IMG/VR virus record: IMGVR_UViG_2802429244_000008
Location: 1 to 8,048 of that record
DNA from: a virus
Taxonomy: Duplodnaviria; Heunggongvirae; Uroviricota; Caudoviricetes
Direction: 5' to 3' (one strand)
DNA: 8,048 bases
Numbering within the stretch: the first letter of the stretch is position 1; every line of letters begins with the position of its first letter. Position numbers and translations under genes: made by a program. The notes beneath the pieces are model-generated. The model saw nothing but the letters and a program-made list of their open reading frames with translations, was not told the origin of the DNA and did no database searches. Below are positions 1 through 8,048 of this stretch, one piece after another.

Positions 1-33
1 GTCAGTGCATAACACAATCTCGCCTTACTACTA

Positions 34-108
<75 letters not shown>

Positions 109-111
109 ATA

Positions 112-187
<76 letters not shown>

Positions 188-249
188 ACTGGTTCCTCAA
201 GAGAAATAAAAATGACCGCGCTTTACATCCCCTTCGGAACCGAAGACGG

Positions 250-277
250 ATATTAATAATGCCGGTTCTTTTTTCAA
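250..277 (-). promoter_or_regulatory. Candidate sigma70 promoter for the tRNA pair
   Basis: On the minus strand: TTGAAA (272-277), 16-bp spacer, TAATAT (250-255), about 55 nt upstream of the tRNA-Thr 5-prime end. Sequence match only. Confidence 0.3.
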
Positions 278-385
278 TAGAAAACCATGTCAATATTCGT
301 AAATATACGTATGTGTTTTTGTTATTTCTGAATTTTAGAAAAAAACAACATGCGCATTTAACGTACTGCACCACTTTTCGGACAC

Positions 386-411
386 AAAAAAACCCGCCTG
401 GCGACGGGTTT
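386..411 (-). terminator. Rho-independent terminator ending the restriction-modification operon
   Basis: Minus strand reads AAACCCG-tcgccagg-CGGGTTT followed by a T run (complement of A7 at 386-392). It lies about 130 nt downstream of the S-subunit stop codon and upstream of the tRNA promoter candidate. Confidence 0.6.
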
Positions 412-541
412 AAGCTGTGTGGCGAAGTGACCACTCTTAACAGAGTATCCAGATTTTTACGATTGTAAACTGCTTTTCATGCATCGTAACGCGATAATCT
501 GACCGCTCTCCCCTGCCTGGCAAGGAAGTATGATGTTTCTG

Positions 542-1609
542 CTAATCGATTTTTTCAGATGTAACATGCCTGTACGCTGCCAGTTTTTTATCAGCGTACT
601 GGACGACATCTTTGATGACGAGTTTCTGCATGACTGAAATAAGGTTATGCATATAACAAAAGTCGGGTAACTTGTTTTTTACTGGCAACCAGATAACATC
701 ATTTTTGATTTTTTTATTGCTAACACTATTACCCCAAGAGTATTTATGTGAAATAGATTTATAAATACATGTAATTAGCCCCAAATGAGTAAACATTGTT
801 CTACCATCTTCGTTATTAACATAAAGTCGTAAATTATGACTGTCGTTTGAAAAAAAGTCTCTTTCCTGATAAGTTACAACGAATGTCTTACCACCAATAA
901 AAATACAGTTCCCTTTCTCCAAGAGAGAAGAATCATAGGATATATAAGTACTGACAGAGTTATTCTCACGACTGGCACAAAGATAAGGAATATCTCCGCT
1001 GTTTTCTGTGATATCTCTGGACAATATGTTTCTCGTATTGCACACAGAGAATAATTCAGTAACAGGGAAACCTGAAAATTCAACATCCTTAAAGCGCTCC
1101 AGAATAAGATGATCTTTTTCCGTGAGTTGGTAATCGCTCAGTCCGGCAGCAACCAGGTATGTTTCCAGCTCTTCTATGTGGGTCGCTTCCAGCTCTTCTA
1201 TGTACTTTACCATATAATTATATGCAGGAACATTATTAAACGTAGGTATATTTATCTTTACCTTATTGAGAACATTCTCATTAAAAGAGCTACATCCCCA
1301 ACTAAACGTTGAAAAAGATTTTTTCATCGCTGATATAAGAAAAACAGCAATTCGCGAATTTAACTCTCCATGTCTGAGAGAAAAAATCTTTATTTTATCA
1401 CCTGTAAAATATGCGCTTTCCTGATAGAACATGGTCGCAGTATCCTGCCCAAAGCTAATTGTATTACCAGGGTTGAGATATGTTTTATCTTCATCTATAT
1501 ATCCTTTTATGCCGTTATTGTTACTTCCTCTCGCAACATAAGGATAGTTGCCATTAAATGTTAATTTATTGGCATTAAATTTCTTTTTAGGTGTCTGAAT
1601 ACTGAACAA
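542..1609 (-). CDS. Restriction-modification specificity subunit (HsdS/BcgIB-like, two target-recognition domains), 355 aa
   Basis: Size and layout fit an S subunit: two AT-rich variable halves separated by a central helical segment (YIEELEATHIEELETYL), with a more GC-rich conserved C-terminal tail. It sits directly downstream of the nuclease-methyltransferase gene. The start is TTG at 1609 with a weak, poorly spaced SD; there is no in-frame ATG nearby. Stop is TAG at 542-544. Confidence 0.65.
   Translation of the reverse strand: MFSIQTPKKKFNANKLTFNGNYPYVARGSNNNGIKGYIDEDKTYLNPGNTISFGQDTATMFYQESAYFTGDKIKIFSLRHGELNSRIAVFLISAMKKSFSTFSWGCSSFNENVLNKVKINIPTFNNVPAYNYMVKYIEELEATHIEELETYLVAAGLSDYQLTEKDHLILERFKDVEFSGFPVTELFSVCNTRNILSRDITENSGDIPYLCASRENNSVSTYISYDSSLLEKGNCIFIGGKTFVVTYQERDFFSNDSHNLRLYVNNEDGRTMFTHLGLITCIYKSISHKYSWGNSVSNKKIKNDVIWLPVKNKLPDFCYMHNLISVMQKLVIKDVVQYADKKLAAYRHVTSEKID
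1163..1203 (-). repeat. Imperfect 24-bp tandem duplication in the central spacer of the S subunit
   Basis: ttccagctcttctatgt occurs at 1163-1179 and again at 1187-1203 (17/17 identical, 24-bp period). It encodes IEELEATH / IEELETYL between the two target-recognition domains. Confidence 0.85.
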
Positions 1610-1683
1610 TCTTCCGATTGTATATTCTTCCCATTTACCACCAGATTTAATAAACTCCCGCTCAAGCTCTGCAAGACGGGAGT

Positions 1684-3816
1684 TTACCGCTTTTTTTCTG
1701 ACGCATCACGCCCCTGAAGAAGTTTTGACACTTCCCACGCAAGATAGTCCGCAACGGTCTTTTTAAAATCCTCCAGCGTCGGTCGGGTATCCACGGGCTT
1801 TGTCTGATTCCAGTCGTCCCCCCGGAGTGGATCTATCACATCCTCAAAATATTCATCTTCCGTAAATATACTGAGGCGGCTTCTGCCAAAATGCACCAAA
1901 TCAACAACTTCCTGATAGCGTTCTCTTGCACGATCCACATCCACAAGGTTATTTCGTGCCTTTTTCCGGTTCGTGCGGACATAACCATCATTCGAAAAGT
2001 CGATAAACTTCACCGGATGTTTTGAATTGTGCGGCAGTTTCACCTGGAATACATAAACATATGTCTGGACACTTGATTTACCAATAAACAAATCAGCAGG
2101 CATTTTTATACTGGCCAGTAGCGTATTCTCCTGAAGTATTTTCTGGTTGTATTCCTTCGCCTTACCTGAACCTGCGGACCCCTGAATAATCACCGCGGCA
2201 TACCCCCCTTTCATCATTGAAAGAGCCTTCTGCACGAAGATCATACCATTACCTTTCGCTGAATATGGCGGGTTCAGCACGAATGCAGTAGCCGGAAATT
2301 TCTCTCCCGATTTACCAAAACCATATCTGCCGTCAAAATCGGCCAGTGAGTCTTTGTTCAGGATGTTGGCGCTGCCATCGCCCATCAGGATCATGTTAAG
2401 AATCGCCAGCATGTAAATACTGGATAACACCTCAAGGCCAAGTAGCTGTTCAGCCTTAATTTGCGCCTCTTTCAGTCTGAGCTCATCCGGTGAGTTAATG
2501 TTCTCTCTGGCATCAATAAGCATCTCATTCATTGCAGCCACCAGCAACCCGGCAGAGCCCGTGGCAAAATCCCACACATACGAATCCCGGTTAACTCTGG
2601 CGAGTCTGGCCAGCAATGTAGCCACATAAGGTGGTGTCAGAACAACATCGTTCAGCTTATCCTGAGTAAACCCTAACCAGCGGTACATCTCATTAAACAG
2701 CTTTCCGGTAAAATCGGTCGTCAGTCCGATTTTGTAGTATTCCTCCAGGTCATCAACAACTTTAATAAATACCCGTTTTAACTGACTTTCACCATCGACA
2801 GGTTTATTAATATTTTCAGTCCACAGCGTATTCTGCAGAGTACGAAGGATCATATCCTTTTTGGTTTCCGGGACACCCTTTATCGTAAGAAAATTCTTAA
2901 CTTTTCTGAAAATAATATCGCCATCACGTTCCCCTTCTTCCGTTGAAGATACAAGCTCGCTTTTATCCAATGGGGTAAGTTTTCCGGGAATACCCAGAGT
3001 GGCAATAACCGTGGCTACAACAAGATAAACCCGATCACTTTCGCCAAGCCCCTTTTCATCCTGATAAATATCGTTGTTCAGACGGGAAAGTCGAGTGTCT
3101 ATCTCTTCCTCTTTGCTGGCCTTAATTTTTTCCAGTTCCTCAGGCGGCAGATTAAGGTGCTTTATCTTGTCGATAAATCCGTCAACATTTTTATCCGCAA
3201 GGAACGACAGATCAGTGTATTCACCAACCTTTTGTCCGGCCCCTAAATTATTCTTTGATACATGCCACACGCCAATTTCATGATGAAGTTCTCCTGTATC
3301 ATCATCGCACCAGCCTGTCATACCGATCGCTATAATATCTGAGTAGTTGGTAAACTGGAGAAGTGCGTTGGCATAATGGACTGCGCCATTAACCGCATAT
3401 CCATTAATGTTTTTAAAGTTCCATTCTTTTCTGGAATCTTTATTCTCGATGATACCGTTACTACCAAGCCGGATAAGCCTGTCCTTATAGCCTTTGTATT
3501 CGATAAGAACAGGGTACTGCCTGCCGTATTTGTCCTGAATAAGGAGTTTTACATCGGGACGGTTACCACCTGCGCCGCCATTTTTCGAAAAATAGGCGTC
3601 CAGGGCGTTATCTATCTCGCTGTTAAGTGGTGCCTGCTCCAGCCTGTAATCAAGCCCGTAAGATTTAAGCCATGAGTTCGCGAGGTCGGAAATTTGCGGC
3701 TCAACCGATTTTACCGTCTTTCTGGATTTACTGGTCGCTGGTCGCTGGTCGCTGGTCGCTGGTCGCTGGTCGCTGGTCGCTGGTCGCTGGTCGCTGGTCT
3801 GGCAGCATAGGATCAT
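1684..3816 (-). CDS. Bifunctional restriction endonuclease / N6-adenine DNA methyltransferase (BcgIA-like Type IIB/IIG enzyme), 710 aa
   Basis: C-terminal half carries gamma-class amino-methyltransferase motifs: VLTPPYVATLL, motif I DFATGSAG, motif IV NPPY. N-terminal region has a PD-(D/E)xK-like signature (RPD...VLIEYK). Residues 6-28 are the translated heptanucleotide repeat (TSDQRPA x3). An alternative ATG at 3806-3808 has the better SD (AAGGA, 7-nt spacing) but is out of frame at the present repeat number. Stop is TAA at 1684-1686. Confidence 0.8.
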   Translation of the reverse strand: MILCCQTSDQRPATSDQRPATSDQRPATSKSRKTVKSVEPQISDLANSWLKSYGLDYRLEQAPLNSEIDNALDAYFSKNGGAGGNRPDVKLLIQDKYGRQYPVLIEYKGYKDRLIRLGSNGIIENKDSRKEWNFKNINGYAVNGAVHYANALLQFTNYSDIIAIGMTGWCDDDTGELHHEIGVWHVSKNNLGAGQKVGEYTDLSFLADKNVDGFIDKIKHLNLPPEELEKIKASKEEEIDTRLSRLNNDIYQDEKGLGESDRVYLVVATVIATLGIPGKLTPLDKSELVSSTEEGERDGDIIFRKVKNFLTIKGVPETKKDMILRTLQNTLWTENINKPVDGESQLKRVFIKVVDDLEEYYKIGLTTDFTGKLFNEMYRWLGFTQDKLNDVVLTPPYVATLLARLARVNRDSYVWDFATGSAGLLVAAMNEMLIDARENINSPDELRLKEAQIKAEQLLGLEVLSSIYMLAILNMILMGDGSANILNKDSLADFDGRYGFGKSGEKFPATAFVLNPPYSAKGNGMIFVQKALSMMKGGYAAVIIQGSAGSGKAKEYNQKILQENTLLASIKMPADLFIGKSSVQTYVYVFQVKLPHNSKHPVKFIDFSNDGYVRTNRKKARNNLVDVDRARERYQEVVDLVHFGRSRLSIFTEDEYFEDVIDPLRGDDWNQTKPVDTRPTLEDFKKTVADYLAWEVSKLLQGRDASEKKR
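3731..3799 (-). repeat. Heptanucleotide simple-sequence repeat, 9 perfect copies (TGGTCGC on + strand, GCGACCA on coding strand) plus partial flanking units
   Basis: Perfect units start at 3732, 3739, 3746, 3753, 3760, 3767, 3774, 3781 and 3788 (63 bp), followed by the partial unit tggtc. The tract lies inside the 5-prime coding region of the nuclease-methyltransferase gene. Unit length is not a multiple of 3. Confidence 0.95.
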
Positions 3817-3836
3817 CCTTTTTCGAAAATCAATGC

Positions 3837-3845
3837 TTTTTTTTT
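3837..3845. repeat. Homopolymeric T9/A9 tract in the promoter region of the restriction-modification gene
   Basis: Nine consecutive T on the + strand (A9 on the coding strand), about 30-40 nt upstream of the candidate start codons. Confidence 0.9.
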
Positions 3846-3971
3846 GGAAAGTACTTAAAAATTATCGTGCTGGCTGAATCAATAACCAGCAAAGGGTATT
3901 AAGTGTGGGTGCGTTGAGGATGCCTGACACATCAGAGATGGCGGGAGATTACTTCCCCCGCCTGGTCACTC

Positions 3972-4127
3972 TTACTCTCCAGATTCGTAGTCTACGAAAA
4001 CAGCGACCTCCGTCTGGCCGGTTCGGATTCGTACCTCGCAGAGGTCTTTCCTCGTTACCAGTGCCGTCACTATGACGGTTAAACAGATGACGATCAGGGC
4101 GATTAACATCGCCTTTTGCTGCTTCAT
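3972..4127 (-). CDS. hok: Hok/Gef-family type I toxin (51 aa small membrane peptide)
   Basis: Translation MKQQKAMLIALIVICLTVIVTALVTRKDLCEVRIRTGQTEVAVFVDYESGE is, from memory, near-identical to E. coli HokD/RelF and Gef: a single transmembrane helix followed by the conserved RKDLCEV...TEVAVF..YES tail. Confidence 0.85.
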   Translation of the reverse strand: MKQQKAMLIALIVICLTVIVTALVTRKDLCEVRIRTGQTEVAVFVDYESGE

Positions 4128-4184
4128 AGCCTGCTTCTCCTTGCCTTTCGGCACGTAAGAGGCTAACCTGATGTTGTCATGCAT
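3972..4184 (-). CDS. mok: mok-like reading frame, an in-frame N-terminal extension of hok (70 aa)
   Basis: ATG at 4182-4184 is preceded by GAGG with about 6-nt spacing. It extends the hok frame by 19 codons, as recalled for mokC/hokC. Confidence 0.55.
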   Translation of the reverse strand: MHDNIRLASYVPKGKEKQAMKQQKAMLIALIVICLTVIVTALVTRKDLCEVRIRTGQTEVAVFVDYESGE

Positions 4185-4245
4185 AGGGAGCCTCAGATTA
4201 ATGTTAAGCGTCTTGCCGGACGCATAATGTTAACTGGGGCTTTTC
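4176..4245 (+). ncRNA. sok: Candidate Sok-like antisense RNA; boundaries approximate
   Basis: On the + strand, TTGCCT (4141-4146), 17-bp spacer, TAACCT (4164-4169) would start a transcript near 4176 that is antisense to the mok start codon and SD. A GC hairpin GCGTC-ttgccg-GACGC lies at 4218-4233. No clean terminator was identified. Confidence 0.3.
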
Positions 4246-4301
4246 TCTATCTGCCTTTTGGTGTTCATGCCTGAGACAGATAGCCTCAAGCACCCGCAAC
4301 A

Positions 4302-4329
4302 ATTCTACAAAAAATCATCTCAATTTCAA
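4302..4329 (-). promoter_or_regulatory. Candidate sigma70 promoter just downstream of Q (hok mRNA promoter and/or a pR-prime-like late promoter)
   Basis: On the minus strand: TTGAAA (4324-4329), 16-bp spacer, TAGAAT (4302-4307). It begins 3 nt after the Q stop codon. Confidence 0.35.
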
Positions 4330-4331
4330 TT

Positions 4332-4742
4332 TTACTGTATTTCTGCAACCGGCCTTCCAGATGAGCCGCGCCCAACATATCTGTCCATTTCCAGTCTGAT
4401 ATCAAGCATCATCAACATCCCATCAACTATCCCTTCAGCCTTTTGCAACAAACGACCAACCCAGCAATCCGAACGACCATGCTTTCGTGCCAGTGCCATG
4501 AACGTCATTCCTCTTACGTAATAATCCACCAGCAAATCATGCAAATCACTGTTATTCTTTTTCAGGCGAGCCATGCATCCACAAATGATCATCGCATCAT
4601 CATCACAACATTGCGGACGTGATTTAACCTTCGAAGGAATAAGCCCCTTGAATCCAGCAGCAATGGATGACCATGTAACATCCTCGTGGTTATTTGCCAC
4701 CCACGCCCCCCAACGCTCAAGAACCATCTGAATATCACGCAT
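4332..4742 (-). CDS. Lambdoid late-gene antiterminator Q (QuuD-like family), 136 aa
   Basis: N-terminal sequence [73 protein letters not shown] matches my recollection of E. coli cryptic-prophage Q homologues. It sits between the replication genes and the cargo region, the canonical Q position. Its ATG overlaps the stop of the upstream ORF (TGATG). Confidence 0.8.
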
Positions 4743-4999
4743 CAGCGCAGTACCTCCTGCACCAGTTTTTCAAACTTACCAACTTTGGTTTCCAGCTCTG
4801 CCACACAATCCACCAGCTCATCCACTGCTTTTTGTGCACGATGTTTCGCCTGCATCAGTTCCCTGAGCGCTGGCACCATATCCCGACGAATGGCATCTTT
4901 TGTTACACCTGTTTTTTCCAGTTGTTCCGCCTGTCGCAACATTTCCTGTGCCTGTTTACGTAGTTGTTCAGGGGTAAAAGTCATTGTCTGGTTGTTCAA
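4742..4999 (-). CDS. Hypothetical small helical protein (85 aa), translationally coupled to the helicase
   Basis: TTG at 4997-4999 overlaps the helicase stop (TTGA) and is preceded by GGAG with 8-nt spacing. An ATG at 4982-4984 lacks an SD. Predicted product is charged and largely alpha-helical, with no family recognised. Confidence 0.45.
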
Positions 5000-6387
5000 A
5001 AGAAACGCTCCATCTTACTGCTGTCAGTTCTTTTATTGCTGTATCTGCGCGGCTGGGGCTGCTGCATTGGGGTGGAAAGAATCTGTGCGCTTTCCTGATC
5101 CACAGGCAGAAAATGTCCGTTATAAAAACGCCGGTAAATCGTTCCCAGAGAACCGTTACGTTGTTTCGTGATATTGATTTCTGCGATGCCCCTAGCCTGC
5201 GTATCCGGGTTGTACACTTCATCCCTGTAAAGCATTAGAATGATGTCTGCATCCGCCTCTATTTCTCCGGAATTTTTCAGGTCTGAGTTCATGGGACGTT
5301 TATTGGGTCTGGACTCCACACCGCGGGAGAGCTGGCTCAGCGCAATCAACGGAAAACCACCGGATTTTGCCAGGCCTTTAAGCCCCTTTGAGATTTCACC
5401 CACGGCAAGGTCATGACGCCCCGTGGTTCGGGTTTTTATCAGCCCGAGATAATCAACCACCACCAGCGCCGTTTCCGGATATTTAATCAGGTGGTGTTTC
5501 GTTGTTGCGCATATCTCATCAATGGTCAGGTTCGCCTGGTCCACCATCCAGATATTGCGACCGGTCATCCGTCCCACCCCTTGTGAGAAACGCGCCCAGT
5601 CTTCGTCTTCAAAGTGAGCGACAGATTTCAGACGTGATACCGGCATTCCTCCAGCCGCAGATACCATGCGCTCACCAATCTGGATGTTCGCCATTTCCAT
5701 TGTGAACAGAAGAACACCATGCCCCTGCTCAGTCACCTTGTCGATGATATCCAGCGCCAGTTCGGTTTTGCCCATTGACGGACGAGCCGCAATAAATACC
5801 AGGTCGCCAGGCTCCATGCCGCCTGTTTTTGCGTCCAGTTCATCAATGCCGGTCATCAGTGTCCTGGATTTCTCCAGTCCCTGATTCCGGCATTCAACAC
5901 GCTCAACCACTTCCGGAAGCACATCATCAATATGTACCGGCTGAATAACGCCCTTTTCCGTCGACAATGAGGCCATCATGTTCTGTGCATCCTTCAGGGC
6001 ATCTTCAGCTGCTTCACAGGTATGCGCATCACGTAATTTCTGCAGCGCCTCATTCAGTGTTTTTTCTGCATCACGCAATGCGGCATTGCGCCGCAGCGCT
6101 GCAACATAGTGCTCCAGTGACGACTTCACCCAGGTTTTGCGCCCGGTATCAGTAATCACCGGGGCAAGTTCCGGCATCTCATTGCACAGCAGCACAGGAT
6201 CAATCACACCTGAAACACGGGCCTGTCTGCAGATGCCTGTGTAGATATCCCGATACGCTCGTACAGAAAAAACGTCCGCCGGTAGTGTGGCCAGAATATC
6301 CATCACTTCATGATCTGCCCCTCGCAGAAAAAACGCGCCAATGACAGCGCCTTCCAGGTCATCGTTACGCCAGACAGGAGAAGTCAT
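4996..6387 (-). CDS. DnaB-family replicative DNA helicase (phage type), 463 aa
   Basis: Walker A in the DnaB context AARPSMGKTELALD, a DnaB-like N-terminal domain and a RecA-like C-terminal domain. Its start ATG overlaps the loader stop (ATGA at 6384-6387). Confidence 0.9.
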   Translation of the reverse strand: MTSPVWRNDDLEGAVIGAFFLRGADHEVMDILATLPADVFSVRAYRDIYTGICRQARVSGVIDPVLLCNEMPELAPVITDTGRKTWVKSSLEHYVAALRRNAALRDAEKTLNEALQKLRDAHTCEAAEDALKDAQNMMASLSTEKGVIQPVHIDDVLPEVVERVECRNQGLEKSRTLMTGIDELDAKTGGMEPGDLVFIAARPSMGKTELALDIIDKVTEQGHGVLLFTMEMANIQIGERMVSAAGGMPVSRLKSVAHFEDEDWARFSQGVGRMTGRNIWMVDQANLTIDEICATTKHHLIKYPETALVVVDYLGLIKTRTTGRHDLAVGEISKGLKGLAKSGGFPLIALSQLSRGVESRPNKRPMNSDLKNSGEIEADADIILMLYRDEVYNPDTQARGIAEINITKQRNGSLGTIYRRFYNGHFLPVDQESAQILSTPMQQPQPRRYSNKRTDSSKMERFF

Positions 6388-7262
6388 GCTGCCACACCTC
6401 TGATACGAGAACGATAGCTGGGCCAGTTAAACGACAACCAGTTGCGTCCCCCGTCTGTGATCCTGTCGGCAATGCGGGGGCTGATGAATGCCCACAACTC
6501 TTCCGGTGAAAGGTTGCTGATCAGGATGGTGGGCAGGATGCTTTCGTACCGGGCATTGATAATTTCCTGCAAAATAGCCATTTCAGCCGCGCTGCCAAAC
6601 TGAACGCCGACTTCGTCGATGATCAGCAAATCCATTGACGCATAATGCTCAATAACTTCATCCGCTGTTTTTTCGCTGTCATTTCGCCAGCAGTTTTTCA
6701 CAGCACGGGTAAGGCGCATCACATCAGTAATCTCCACACTAGCCAGATGGTTACGGATGATGTGTTTTGCCATAGCCACAGCCAGATGATTTTTTCCGGT
6801 ACCACAACTGCCTGTCAGAACAAGACTGGTACCGTTAGCCAGAACATCCTCCCAGCTCTCCGCATAGCGGCGGCAGGCAGCAAGATTTCTGGCTGCATCA
6901 GAGTTAATCTCCTGATAGTTTTCAAACTCACAGTCGCGAAACCTACAGGCAACACCAGCATTCTCAATCAGCACATCAGCTTTCATTGCAACCAGAGTCC
7001 GATGTGTCACATCCATTTCATCCACCAGACACTCCGGACAGCGGGAAATTTTTGAGACAGCGCCCCCCTGCCGATCATCCCACACCAGTATATGCGTACG
7101 ATATTTACCGTGTTTTTCGCAGCATCCAACCCCTTCAGATTCCCGACAGGCACGGTAAGGCCATGGCTTTTCGCCATTCTGAGCAAATGCAATCTCTGCC
7201 CGTAACTCATCCATTCGCGCCTGTAGTCTTGTTTGTTTCTCACGTTGGTCAATCGTCATCAT
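6384..7262 (-). CDS. DnaC/IstB-like AAA+ helicase loader, about 292 aa
   Basis: Walker A LTGSCGTGKNHLA and Walker B LLIIDEVG. Preferred start is ATG at 7260-7262, preceded by GAGGTGA with 5-nt spacing; the ORF track's GTG at 7271 is the alternative. Confidence 0.85.
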   Translation of the reverse strand: MMTIDQREKQTRLQARMDELRAEIAFAQNGEKPWPYRACRESEGVGCCEKHGKYRTHILVWDDRQGGAVSKISRCPECLVDEMDVTHRTLVAMKADVLIENAGVACRFRDCEFENYQEINSDAARNLAACRRYAESWEDVLANGTSLVLTGSCGTGKNHLAVAMAKHIIRNHLASVEITDVMRLTRAVKNCWRNDSEKTADEVIEHYASMDLLIIDEVGVQFGSAAEMAILQEIINARYESILPTILISNLSPEELWAFISPRIADRITDGGRNWLSFNWPSYRSRIRGVAA

Positions 7263-7272
7263 CGCTGTCACC

Positions 7273-8048
7273 TCAGAATGTCAATTTGTTACTGGATTTA
7301 CCGAATTTGTCAGACATGGCTCCCAGGCCAGCCAGGACATCGACCTGTCGCTGTCGCCCACCTCCGTGAGCGGCTGGCTGTTGCCAGGTATCATCAAAAT
7401 GACGATCGGGGCCAAAGAACGTCGCTGCCTGCTTCACGAACTGTGTGCCGGTATTTCCTGTAGCACGTACCCAGGCGGCATACCGCTTCACGCCATCAAG
7501 CATGCTCTCCGGTTTTATTCCCTCCCTGATACGTGCTTTCCAGGCTTTGAAGGCTGCTGACTTGGAATTGCCACCAGCACGTTTGGGATATTCCTGCCAT
7601 GCCTGTTCAAATTCCGGTGAATATTCCAGTCGGGCAGAACGCGCTGGTGCAGACGCGTCAGCGGATGCGCCAATAGTTGATTCATTGACTGGTTCTTTGA
7701 CTGGTTCAAAAGAGTGACTGGTTCTGGGTGAATCTCCTGCACTACCCCCTGGTGCAACTCTTACACCACCTGGTGAATTTGCTGCACTAGGTAGTGAATT
7801 ATTTGCACTACCACCTGGTGAATCTTTTGCACCATCAAGACGAAGAAGATAAATATTGCTCGAGTTCCCTTTTTCACCTTTCCGGGAAACTTTTTTTACC
7901 AGTCCGGATTCACAAAGAGCCGTAATATGATTCATCACAGAACGTTTGCTAATCTCGCACTGATCAGCAATATGCTGATAGCTGGGCCAGCACTCGCCCT
8001 GATCGCTGGCATTATCAGCCAGCTTAATCAGAACCAGTTTTCGCAACG
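7273..8048 (-). CDS. Phage replication initiator / replisome organiser (lambda O-like), 5-prime partial
   Basis: N-terminal HTH region (ADNASDQGECWPSYQHIADQCEISKRSVMNHITALCESGLV), a low-complexity Pro/Gly/Ser linker that contains the DNA iterons, and a C-terminal domain. The reading frame runs to the window edge, so the true start is probably outside. Stop is TGA at 7273-7275. Confidence 0.75.
   Translation of the reverse strand, partial: LRKLVLIKLADNASDQGECWPSYQHIADQCEISKRSVMNHITALCESGLVKKVSRKGEKGNSSNIYLLRLDGAKDSPGGSANNSLPSAANSPGGVRVAPGGSAGDSPRTSHSFEPVKEPVNESTIGASADASAPARSARLEYSPEFEQAWQEYPKRAGGNSKSAAFKAWKARIREGIKPESMLDGVKRYAAWVRATGNTGTQFVKQAATFFGPDRHFDDTWQQPAAHGGGRQRQVDVLAGLGAMSDKFGKSSNKLTF
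7686..7823. repeat. Iteron-like direct repeats inside the O-like gene (candidate phage replication origin)
   Basis: Set A: TGACTGGTTC three times (7686, 7698, 7715). Set B: four copies of roughly TGCACTACCNCCTGGTGAAT at about 22-bp spacing (7738-7757, 7764-7778, 7783-7799, 7804-7823), with internal dyad CACC.GGTG. Confidence 0.5.

Follow-up and report, generated by a model that had tools for sequence, protein, structure and literature searches.

Can a short tandem repeat at the head of a prophage gene act as a switch, and what would it control? The question is raised by a window of 8,048 bp (IMG/VR virus record IMGVR_UViG_2802429244_000008, positions 1 to 8,048), which is the whole of a short-read draft contig (PTSP01000084.1, assembly GCA_002965905.1) and represents a lambdoid prophage segment with all genes on the minus strand. 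Nine copies of the heptanucleotide GCGACCA stand here at the 5′ coding end of a restriction-modification (RM) gene (1684..3816, minus strand), which encodes 710 amino acids (aa) at nine units, with a 681-aa body after the tract. In E. coli, phase variation driven by repeats is regarded as rare. The comparisons described below suggest, with a probability that we put at about 80%, that the tract is a contingency (phase-variation) locus controlling a BcgI-like RM enzyme of an Escherichia lambdoid prophage.

Read on the minus strand, the nine exact units run from 3794 to 3732 (...TTGATTTTCGAAAAAGGATGATCCTATGCTGCCAGACCA(GCGACCA)9GTAAATCCAGAAAG...). Tandem Repeats Finder (TRF) places a period-7 array at 3731-3799 (9.9 copies, 100% matches, score 138), and a three-unit probe gave 7 overlapping matches in the window as opposed to 0 in 200 dinucleotide-preserving shuffles. 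In all three of its frames the unit is free of stop codons and is translated as the heptapeptide SDQRPAT. Two ATG codons precede the tract in different frames. ATG-1 (3814..3816, minus strand), the start of the 710-aa open reading frame (ORF) at 1684-3816, lies with zero spacing inside the Shine-Dalgarno (SD) sequence AAGGA (3816..3820, minus strand) that serves ATG-2 (3806..3808, minus strand), located 8 nt downstream of ATG-1 and 7 nt from the SD. At nine units the ATG-2 ORF has 26 codons and ends at TAA 3730-3728, and a TGA overlapping ATG-1 shuts the third frame. The calculated anti-SD duplex is -5.4 kcal/mol at a spacing of 6 for ATG-2 versus -2.8 kcal/mol at a spacing of 0 for ATG-1. The latter is probably a weak start, and it is changed to ATA in two relatives, one in the ATG-1 frame and the other in the ATG-2 frame. 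The good SD of ATG-2 supports its role as the canonical start, as does the fact that its equivalent is the only start common to all contexts of this leader-and-repeat cassette, including the mod and M.EcoRI-like genes discussed below. With the canonical start out of frame at nine units, the state seen in the window is plausibly one of 'low' expression. An earlier note on this DNA had described the nine perfect units at 3732-3794, which TRF and exact matching confirmed, as well as the two out-of-frame ATGs and the abutment of ATG-1 on its SD in frame with the 710-aa ORF. Its account of the SD and the TAA flanking the ATG-2 frame also stands, but its expectation that ATG-2 would come into frame at 10 or 7 copies was an arithmetic slip: a frame simulation over 5-15 units put ATG-2 in frame at n = 5, 8, 11 and 14, and neither ATG in frame at n = 7, 10 and 13.

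The decisive evidence for switching comes from relatives of the window. About 30 of 5,426 complete E. coli genomes carry an RM allele ~83% DNA-identical to that of the window and likewise placed after Q and hok; from complete genomes and IMG/VR contigs, 23 complete RM-type tracts with both flanks were obtained, a partly clonal sample. Nearly all are perfect, and they span 8 to 119 units: 15, 22, 22, 29, 55, 55, 57, 63, 75, 79, 82, 82, 82, 64+26, 98 and 119 in complete genomes, and 8, 8, 9, 15, 18, 33 and 55+25+20 in draft contigs. The gene body is in the ATG-1 frame in 10 of the 23, in the ATG-2 frame in 5, and in the frame reached by no start (OFF) in 8. Differences were found even between tracts with identical flanks (0 mismatches over 2,046 nt of gene body and 1.9-2.7 kb of upstream sequence). 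Strains OkiPb01714, 01692 and 01696 have 22, 29 and 22 units (OFF, ATG-2 and OFF, respectively), and Symbioflor G1/2, G6/7 and G8 have 64+26, 82 and 98 (ATG-1, OFF and ATG-2). Two O111:H8 strains differ with 55 and 57 units (OFF and ATG-1), as do UCPROB-002 and UCPROB-001 with 82 and 75 (OFF and ATG-1). By this comparison of genome sequences, tract length evidently changes far faster than the surrounding DNA mutates. Both frames are also represented among the proteins of the window's own allele cluster, with an ATG-2 product (MLPDQRPATS..., 727 aa) and an ATG-1 product (MILWCQTSDQ..., 724 aa). The length changes are not limited to multiples of three units. The earlier note had proposed phase variation by tract length and had named a constant tract, or use of ATG-1 alone with changes only in threes, as what would speak against it; the range of 8-119 units and the other step sizes between prophages with identical flanks speak for the proposal.

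Exactly 82 units occur in three genomes (L036, L040 and L042 in our numbering). With a difference of 4 bases over 7 kb, Symbioflor G6/7 and UCPROB-002 are possibly one and the same probiotic strain; if they are, a tract of 82 units would seem able to stay stable across isolations. The O111:H8 strain represents an independent lineage. E. coli JNEC-KY171 (L175, H38) and the OkiPb strains hold two cassette copies in different prophages, and the second RM-type locus of JNEC-KY171 has 55 units and is OFF.

This comparative evidence gives good support to phase variation through slippage of the repeat, because identical prophages differ in n, all frames occur, and the enzyme body is under purifying selection. 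The locus has the hallmarks of contingency genes: a perfect tract of a unit not divisible by three stands between the start and the body of an intact ORF, its length is polymorphic between identical genomes, and ON and OFF frames are both present. In the mechanism that we propose, slipped-strand mispairing during replication would add or remove 7-bp units, each step rotating the frame. With the junction found in the window, n = 2 mod 3 would allow the body to be read from ATG-2 with its well-spaced SD, giving full expression; n = 0 mod 3 (e.g., 9) would leave only ATG-1, inside the SD, and low expression; and at n = 1 mod 3 no start would reach the body (OFF). As nuclease and methylase form one polypeptide, restriction and modification would switch together, leaving the specificity (S) gene unaffected. 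The likely benefit is bet-hedging, in which defence against foreign DNA is weighed against enzyme cost and autoimmunity, and genome-wide shifts in methylation would be a side effect. Since the RM gene lies after Q and a terminator, Q antitermination on prophage induction probably boosts its expression, by read-through from hok or a late promoter.

The enzyme itself combines a nuclease and a gamma-class N6-adenine methylase on the same chain. The 710-aa protein contains the nuclease motif P87-D88...E106-Y-K108 (3493-3558), methylase motif I DFATGSAG (2548-2571) and motif IV NPPY (2263-2274), all invariant across 20 homologues. It matches Pfam N6_Mtase (1.4e-18), with a sub-threshold VRR_NUC match at residues 59-115, and two PADLOC profiles, REase_MTase_IIG PDLC03616 over its full length (8e-227) and PDLC03602 (637 positions; 1.6e-44). 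The S protein (542..1651, minus strand) has two target-recognition domains (TRDs), seen as two Pfam Methylase_S stretches (2.9e-27), and matches PADLOC Specificity_II PDLC03591 (341 positions; 1.1e-22) over profile positions 7-332. Its start in the source gene call, ATT at 1651, aligns position for position with the specificity-subunit profile; a start at TTG 1609, the first canonical codon, would leave the protein 14 residues shorter. No HsdR/Res-type ATP-dependent translocase was found in the window or in the annotated E. coli relatives. Fused RM protein, separate S subunit and lack of a translocase define the layout of BcgI and BsaXI (PMC3592470, PMC11997821), (RM)2S enzymes of the Type IIB class, which cuts on both sides of a bipartite recognition site; the BcgI motifs have also been defined (PMC3592470). 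The predicted PD..ExK nuclease and NPPY methylase in one chain, a separate two-TRD S subunit and no HsdR fit this Type IIB layout, in agreement with the class proposed previously. A Type I system was considered, given the HsdM-like domain and HsdS-like gene at the locus, and rejected: HsdR is lacking, the nuclease is fused to the methylase, and the NCBIfam hsdM profile scores 33.6 bits, below its cutoff of 242.75. Sequence searches of the PDB with the enzyme gave no matches. The AlphaFold model, built from a shallow alignment, is poor (mean predicted local distance difference test (pLDDT) 53.5); Foldseek with this model ranks HsdM proteins first and retrieves BsaXI RM (8w0p_A) with E 7e-5 over 633 columns, at 18% identity and a low template-modelling (TM) score. 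One source labels a relative 'restriction enzyme subunit alpha'. Between RM alleles, dN/dS (the ratio of nonsynonymous to synonymous substitution rates) is 0.044-0.058 at a dS of 1.2-1.7, and the 681-aa body is intact at every locus. By these estimates the enzyme body is under strong purifying selection, and the gene is thus maintained rather than decaying.

The tract is an addition to the gene. Homologues ~71% identical, from Neisseria, Providencia, Facklamia and others, are 677-686 aa long, have no repeat and start with a methionine 5-12 residues before SVEPNIADLANGW. The native start is gone in the Escherichia prophage genes, and downstream of the tract there is no in-frame start until M176. 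On the alignment of these homologues, the tract is therefore an add-on that replaced the native start, and expression must originate upstream of the repeat.

Several points weigh against the interpretation of the locus as a switch. The frame of the strong start, ATG-2, is the rarest (5/23), with no sign of selection for ON, and a switch would not need tracts anywhere near as long as 55-119 units. The evidence for switching of this gene is comparative throughout. ATG-1 may be incidental to the SD, being embedded in it, replaced by ATA at two loci and absent from the two other cassettes. A nuclease-methylase switched ON in an unmethylated cell could be lethal, and the promoter scan found no promoter at its threshold between the hok terminator and the ATGs. 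Finally, the nine units of the window come from a short-read contig and may be under-called, and with them the frame that we give. That the nine units, and hence the in-frame state of ATG-1, are an assembly collapse of a longer real tract is possible, although on balance we think it unlikely. The window is an entire draft contig; two contigs with the same allele (L028 and L029) stop within the tract after no fewer than 11 and no fewer than 16 units; in draft and metagenome contigs the tract has 2-33 units or the assembly breaks off within it, as against 15-119 in complete genomes; and deposited tracts of this repeat were always shorter than measured ones in the study of Atack et al. (PMC5909438). 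On the other hand, at 69 bp the tract would fit within an ordinary Illumina read, and the assembly joins it to unique sequence on either side, and tracts of 15-22 units are also present in complete genomes.

The same repeat has been described on a different gene. Atack et al. 2018 (NAR 46:3532; PMC5909438) reported CAGCGAC[n] in a 'Type III mod' gene of E. coli strains producing Shiga toxin (STEC), M.Eco131I / ECSTECDG1313_5492, which they called the first phase-variable methyltransferase in E. coli, and used fragment analysis to show that tracts of different lengths coexist in single cultures. CAGCGAC is GCGACCA permuted cyclically. The window gene is not the published mod gene, as the published primers are absent from the window and 37 related loci; they map to ~100 kb conjugative plasmids in 8 of the 5,426 E. 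coli genomes, where a mod gene (PF01555/TypeIII_RM_meth) is followed by a DEAD-box res gene and its leader reads TTGATTTTtattGAGGGAAtttttATGCTGCCAGACCA(GCGACCA)29. On plasmid NZ_CP182309.1 (L038 3760-5884) and 7 other E. coli plasmids, the M.Eco131I-type mod gene lies beside a relaxase gene, and the 29 units of L038 are in frame. BLAST with the leader revealed a third host gene in E. coli A34 (NZ_CP028741.1, L174 4477-7392), where TTGATTTTttatGGAGaaaacacatATGCTGCCAGACCA is followed by 98 units directly after Q of a lambdoid prophage; the units are in frame (603-aa ORF) with an EcoRI-family adenine methylase (PF13651, 2e-143), and a GmrSD_N-HNH nuclease comes next. By these annotations the cassette hosts are a BcgI-like RM gene of Stx-type lambdoid prophages, a Type III mod gene of conjugative plasmids and an EcoRI-family methylase with GmrSD/HNH in another lambdoid prophage. 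The mod and A34 leaders are also homologous further upstream (CAGATTA[G/C]CCC...), over a stretch missing from the RM-type leader.

In each of the four gene contexts that bear the cassette, the same distance separates the ATG from the leader element TTGATTTT upstream of it (3826..3833, minus strand in the window). These contexts have TTGATTTT, TATGCTGCCAGACCA and the unit unchanged, with a diverged SD region in between, and share no homology beyond the 3′ end of the tract; ATG-1 is absent from the mod and EcoRI-like cassettes. Leader and unit do not differ even between RM alleles in whose bodies synonymous sites are saturated, and the cassette therefore looks like a module shared by recombination, perhaps inside the tract. 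We consider the odds roughly even that the ~50-70-nt leader (TTGATTTT, SD, ATGCTGCCAGACCA) and (GCGACCA)n form a portable stochastic switch, which mobile elements of Escherichia and Salmonella have grafted onto at least three unrelated methylase/restriction genes, with exchange probably occurring within the tract, and to which an octamer in the S gene of one lineage adds an independent switch. The tract might even be chiefly a recombination portal, behind whose shared leader mobile elements swap defence genes, with phase variation secondary or additional. The occurrence of leader and tract before three unrelated methylase genes on prophages and conjugative plasmids, the end of homology at the tract's 3′ edge, the identity of leader and unit between RM alleles with a body dS above 1.2 and the sufficiency of 0.4-0.8 kb tracts for RecA-dependent exchange are all in keeping with such a role. 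As the chief function we regard it as unlikely, given that it leaves unexplained why the number of units varies between identical prophages and why the unit is not a multiple of three, and that only three contexts are seen, with no recombinant junction caught; it is compatible with a contingency locus rather than exclusive of it.

The repeat could also matter mainly as a protein feature, a disordered (SDQRPAT)n tail of variable length that tunes activity or assembly, with frame changes as a by-product. The same heptapeptide is encoded in all three frames without a stop, in-frame products contain up to ~280 repeat residues (966-aa ORF, L002), tract lengths go far beyond the needs of switching, and NeuO, whose heptad poly-psi domain offers a parallel for such tuning, gains catalytic efficiency as repeat number rises (PMC8653822). 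Nevertheless, such a role seems distinctly improbable as the main one: a purely protein-level function does not explain the 8 of 23 loci in the no-start frame, homologues in other genera work without a tail, the same tail on three unrelated enzymes points to a generic switch rather than an enzyme-specific domain, and the AlphaFold pLDDT of the tail is below 35. That the repeat is a neutral microsatellite in a decaying, unused moron gene, as the common OFF frames, the lack of an enriched frame and the rarity of the locus (~30/5,426 complete E. coli genomes) might suggest, is very improbable in view of the dN/dS of ~0.05, the 681-aa body and S gene intact at every locus examined, the invariant catalytic motifs and the conserved arrangement of start codons and SD.

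A second repeat accompanies the putative switch in some relatives. Midway along the S gene, after the central conserved region and before the second recognition domain, the Stx2b-type E. coli alleles L001, L003, L032, L033 and L034 carry 4, 6, 18, 6 and 23 copies, respectively, of the octamer (CGCGGACT)n; three isolates with identical flanks differ in copy number (18, 6 and 23). S is annotated as full-length where n is a multiple of 3, and otherwise as a half-S plus a 173-aa ORF. The octamer is absent from the S gene of the window (542-1651). In L032, a 24-bp in-frame repeat (3.8 copies) adjoins the octamer and could alter the recognition-site spacer. Apparent S-gene frameshifts in L039-L042 were rejected, as the split annotations stand on identical sequence and are annotation differences. 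In STEC 04-00955 the RM locus lies ~2 kb upstream of stx2b, with RM-S between Q/hok and a tRNA cluster plus stxA2b/stxB2b (L001 1-1040, 1132-1381). Given this position between Q/hok and stx2b, the tract and enzyme genes would be inside the Q-dependent late transcript that drives Shiga toxin. With octamer and heptamer together, one prophage could produce defence and epigenetic states in combination, a short way upstream of stx2b.

The order of genes in the window is an O-like helix-turn-helix protein, a DnaC-like loader, DnaB helicase, Q, hok/sok, RM, S and two tRNAs, and the proteins in the 90% cluster of the RM gene come from E. coli, E. marmotae and unnamed Escherichia. The gene for the Q antiterminator (4332-4742, minus strand) is directly followed by a sigma-70-like promoter (4329-4302, minus strand; TTGAAA-16-TAGAAT in the promoter scan), the sok antitoxin RNA region (4122-4295, minus strand) and the hok/mok toxin ORF (3972-4184, minus strand), the latter immediately upstream of the RM region. 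A terminator-like hairpin with a T-run (3868..3891, minus strand) separates hok from the RM gene. With the Q gene and a promoter-like site upstream, the RM-S operon occupies the 'moron' position of a late transcript. A further promoter-like pair, TTGATT-N17/18-TATGCT, is present in the leader (window 3826-3833 and 3804-3809, minus strand; also L001, L031, L038 and L174), and its hexamers are conserved in all four cassette contexts while the spacer has diverged; it scores 8 of 12 and would place the start of transcription past both ATGs, of no sense for expressing the gene, and we do not take it for the promoter. The contig end carries tRNA-Gly(tcc) and tRNA-Thr(tgt) (34-108 and 112-187, minus strand), where Stx-type E. 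coli relatives have tRNA-Ile/Arg/Arg, and a 94-aa ORF at 150-434 that overlaps a tRNA is probably spurious.

The tract is also open on the opposite strand, where the window (3672-3902, plus strand) encodes WSLVAGR repeats. Opposite-strand repeat ORFs are annotated as coding sequences in L002, L003, L031-L043, L174 and L175, named 'YXWGXW repeat-containing protein' or 'hypothetical protein' by RefSeq, which cuts the real RM gene back to an internal start (569 or 653 aa). Both the 'YXWGXW' coding sequences and the shortened gene calls are almost certainly annotation artefacts.

Outside E. coli, a Salmonella contig begins exactly at the tract's 3′ edge and has lambdoid lysis genes downstream. Another contig, from Salmonella enterica (L172, AAIXRA010000034.1), starts just past the expected tract site and holds a close RM-S homologue beside conjugation or integrative and conjugative element genes (RAQPRD, TrbI-like) rather than in a prophage. 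Scanning metagenomes for the leader and repeat together yielded 8 contigs, all of the RM type and with no new host genes, and at the peptide level the matches of (SDQRPAT)n were all short fragments lacking domain context. Among the matches listed, the Planctomycetota metagenome-assembled genome JALHRW01 (L048-L121) shows dozens of (GCGACCA)n arrays on many contigs, which are a genome-wide dispersed repeat unrelated to the enterobacterial cassette. The environmental IMG/VR contigs L008, L010 and L012, GC-rich and phage-like, carry (GCGACCA)9-12 followed by (GCACCA)4; copy number differs between them, and no long ORF crosses the array.

The locus belongs to a well-known kind, the repeat-switched RM gene, and both repeat and leader had been described before, on another gene. 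What is new is the BcgI-like, prophage-borne host gene, the quantified hypermutability between identical prophages and the occurrence of the cassette on three unrelated methylase genes. Our literature searches found no description of this gene, nor of phase variation in a Type IIB system; the O111 Type IIG enzyme of Forde et al. 2019 (PMC6602927) is a different system. The locus would add a second kind of phase-variable system in E. coli, one in which nuclease and methylase flicker together. Its carriers include Stx2b-type prophages, the probiotic Symbioflor strains and the isolated phage PhiR12_3. If our reading is correct, lysogens of the same clone would differ stochastically in the foreign DNA that they accept, in the methylation of progeny phage and possibly in methylation genome-wide. 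In practical terms, the tract breaks or collapses short-read assemblies and misleads annotation, through a shortened gene and spurious opposite-strand proteins, and it provides a ready-made hypervariable marker for sub-clonal typing. The sharing of one cassette by three unrelated methylase genes suggests a trade in modular regulatory switches among mobile elements.

Compared with known systems, the predicted enzyme resembles BcgI and BsaXI in having an N-terminal PD..ExK nuclease and an N6-adenine methylase on one chain, a separate two-domain HsdS-like subunit and no translocase. Those enzymes, however, are not known as phase-variable or prophage-borne, direct sequence similarity of the window enzyme to the solved structures is undetectable, and the structural similarity to BsaXI is weakly supported, coming from a poor model. 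Cj0031 of Campylobacter jejuni is a phase-variable Type IIG RM enzyme controlled by poly-G (PMC4889913). It is likewise a fused nuclease-methylase whose two activities are switched together by a repeat tract, although its poly-G lies inside the gene, its specificity resides in the same polypeptide with no S subunit, and it is chromosomal. The arrangement of start codons has a counterpart in H. influenzae lic2A and lic1, where Dixon et al. 2007 (J Bacteriol 189:511) are said to have described multiple out-of-frame initiation codons upstream of (CAAT)n. There, too, two starts in different frames before one tract give a potential three-state switch (strong, weak, off), but the unit is a tetranucleotide and the genes are chromosomal ones for lipooligosaccharide biosynthesis in another organism. 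The neuO gene of the E. coli K1 prophage CUS-3 is, like the window gene, prophage-borne with a heptanucleotide, (AAGACTC)n, in its 5′ coding region. It has been termed a 'mobile contingency locus' that is ON in one frame class only and whose repeat, once translated, gives a heptad peptide (Deszo et al. 2005 PNAS, summarised in PMC8653822). Unit, leader and cargo (a capsule O-acetyltransferase) are different in neuO, which has 14-39 units and a single start and does not serve defence. The STEC mod gene differs in being a Type III Mod, paired on plasmids with a res helicase, so that methylase and nuclease are separate proteins, and in having a single start codon in its leader; it shares with the window gene the identical heptamer, a leader of TTGATTTT, then the SD, then ATGCTGCCAGACCA, a tract that varies between strains, and the same host genus.

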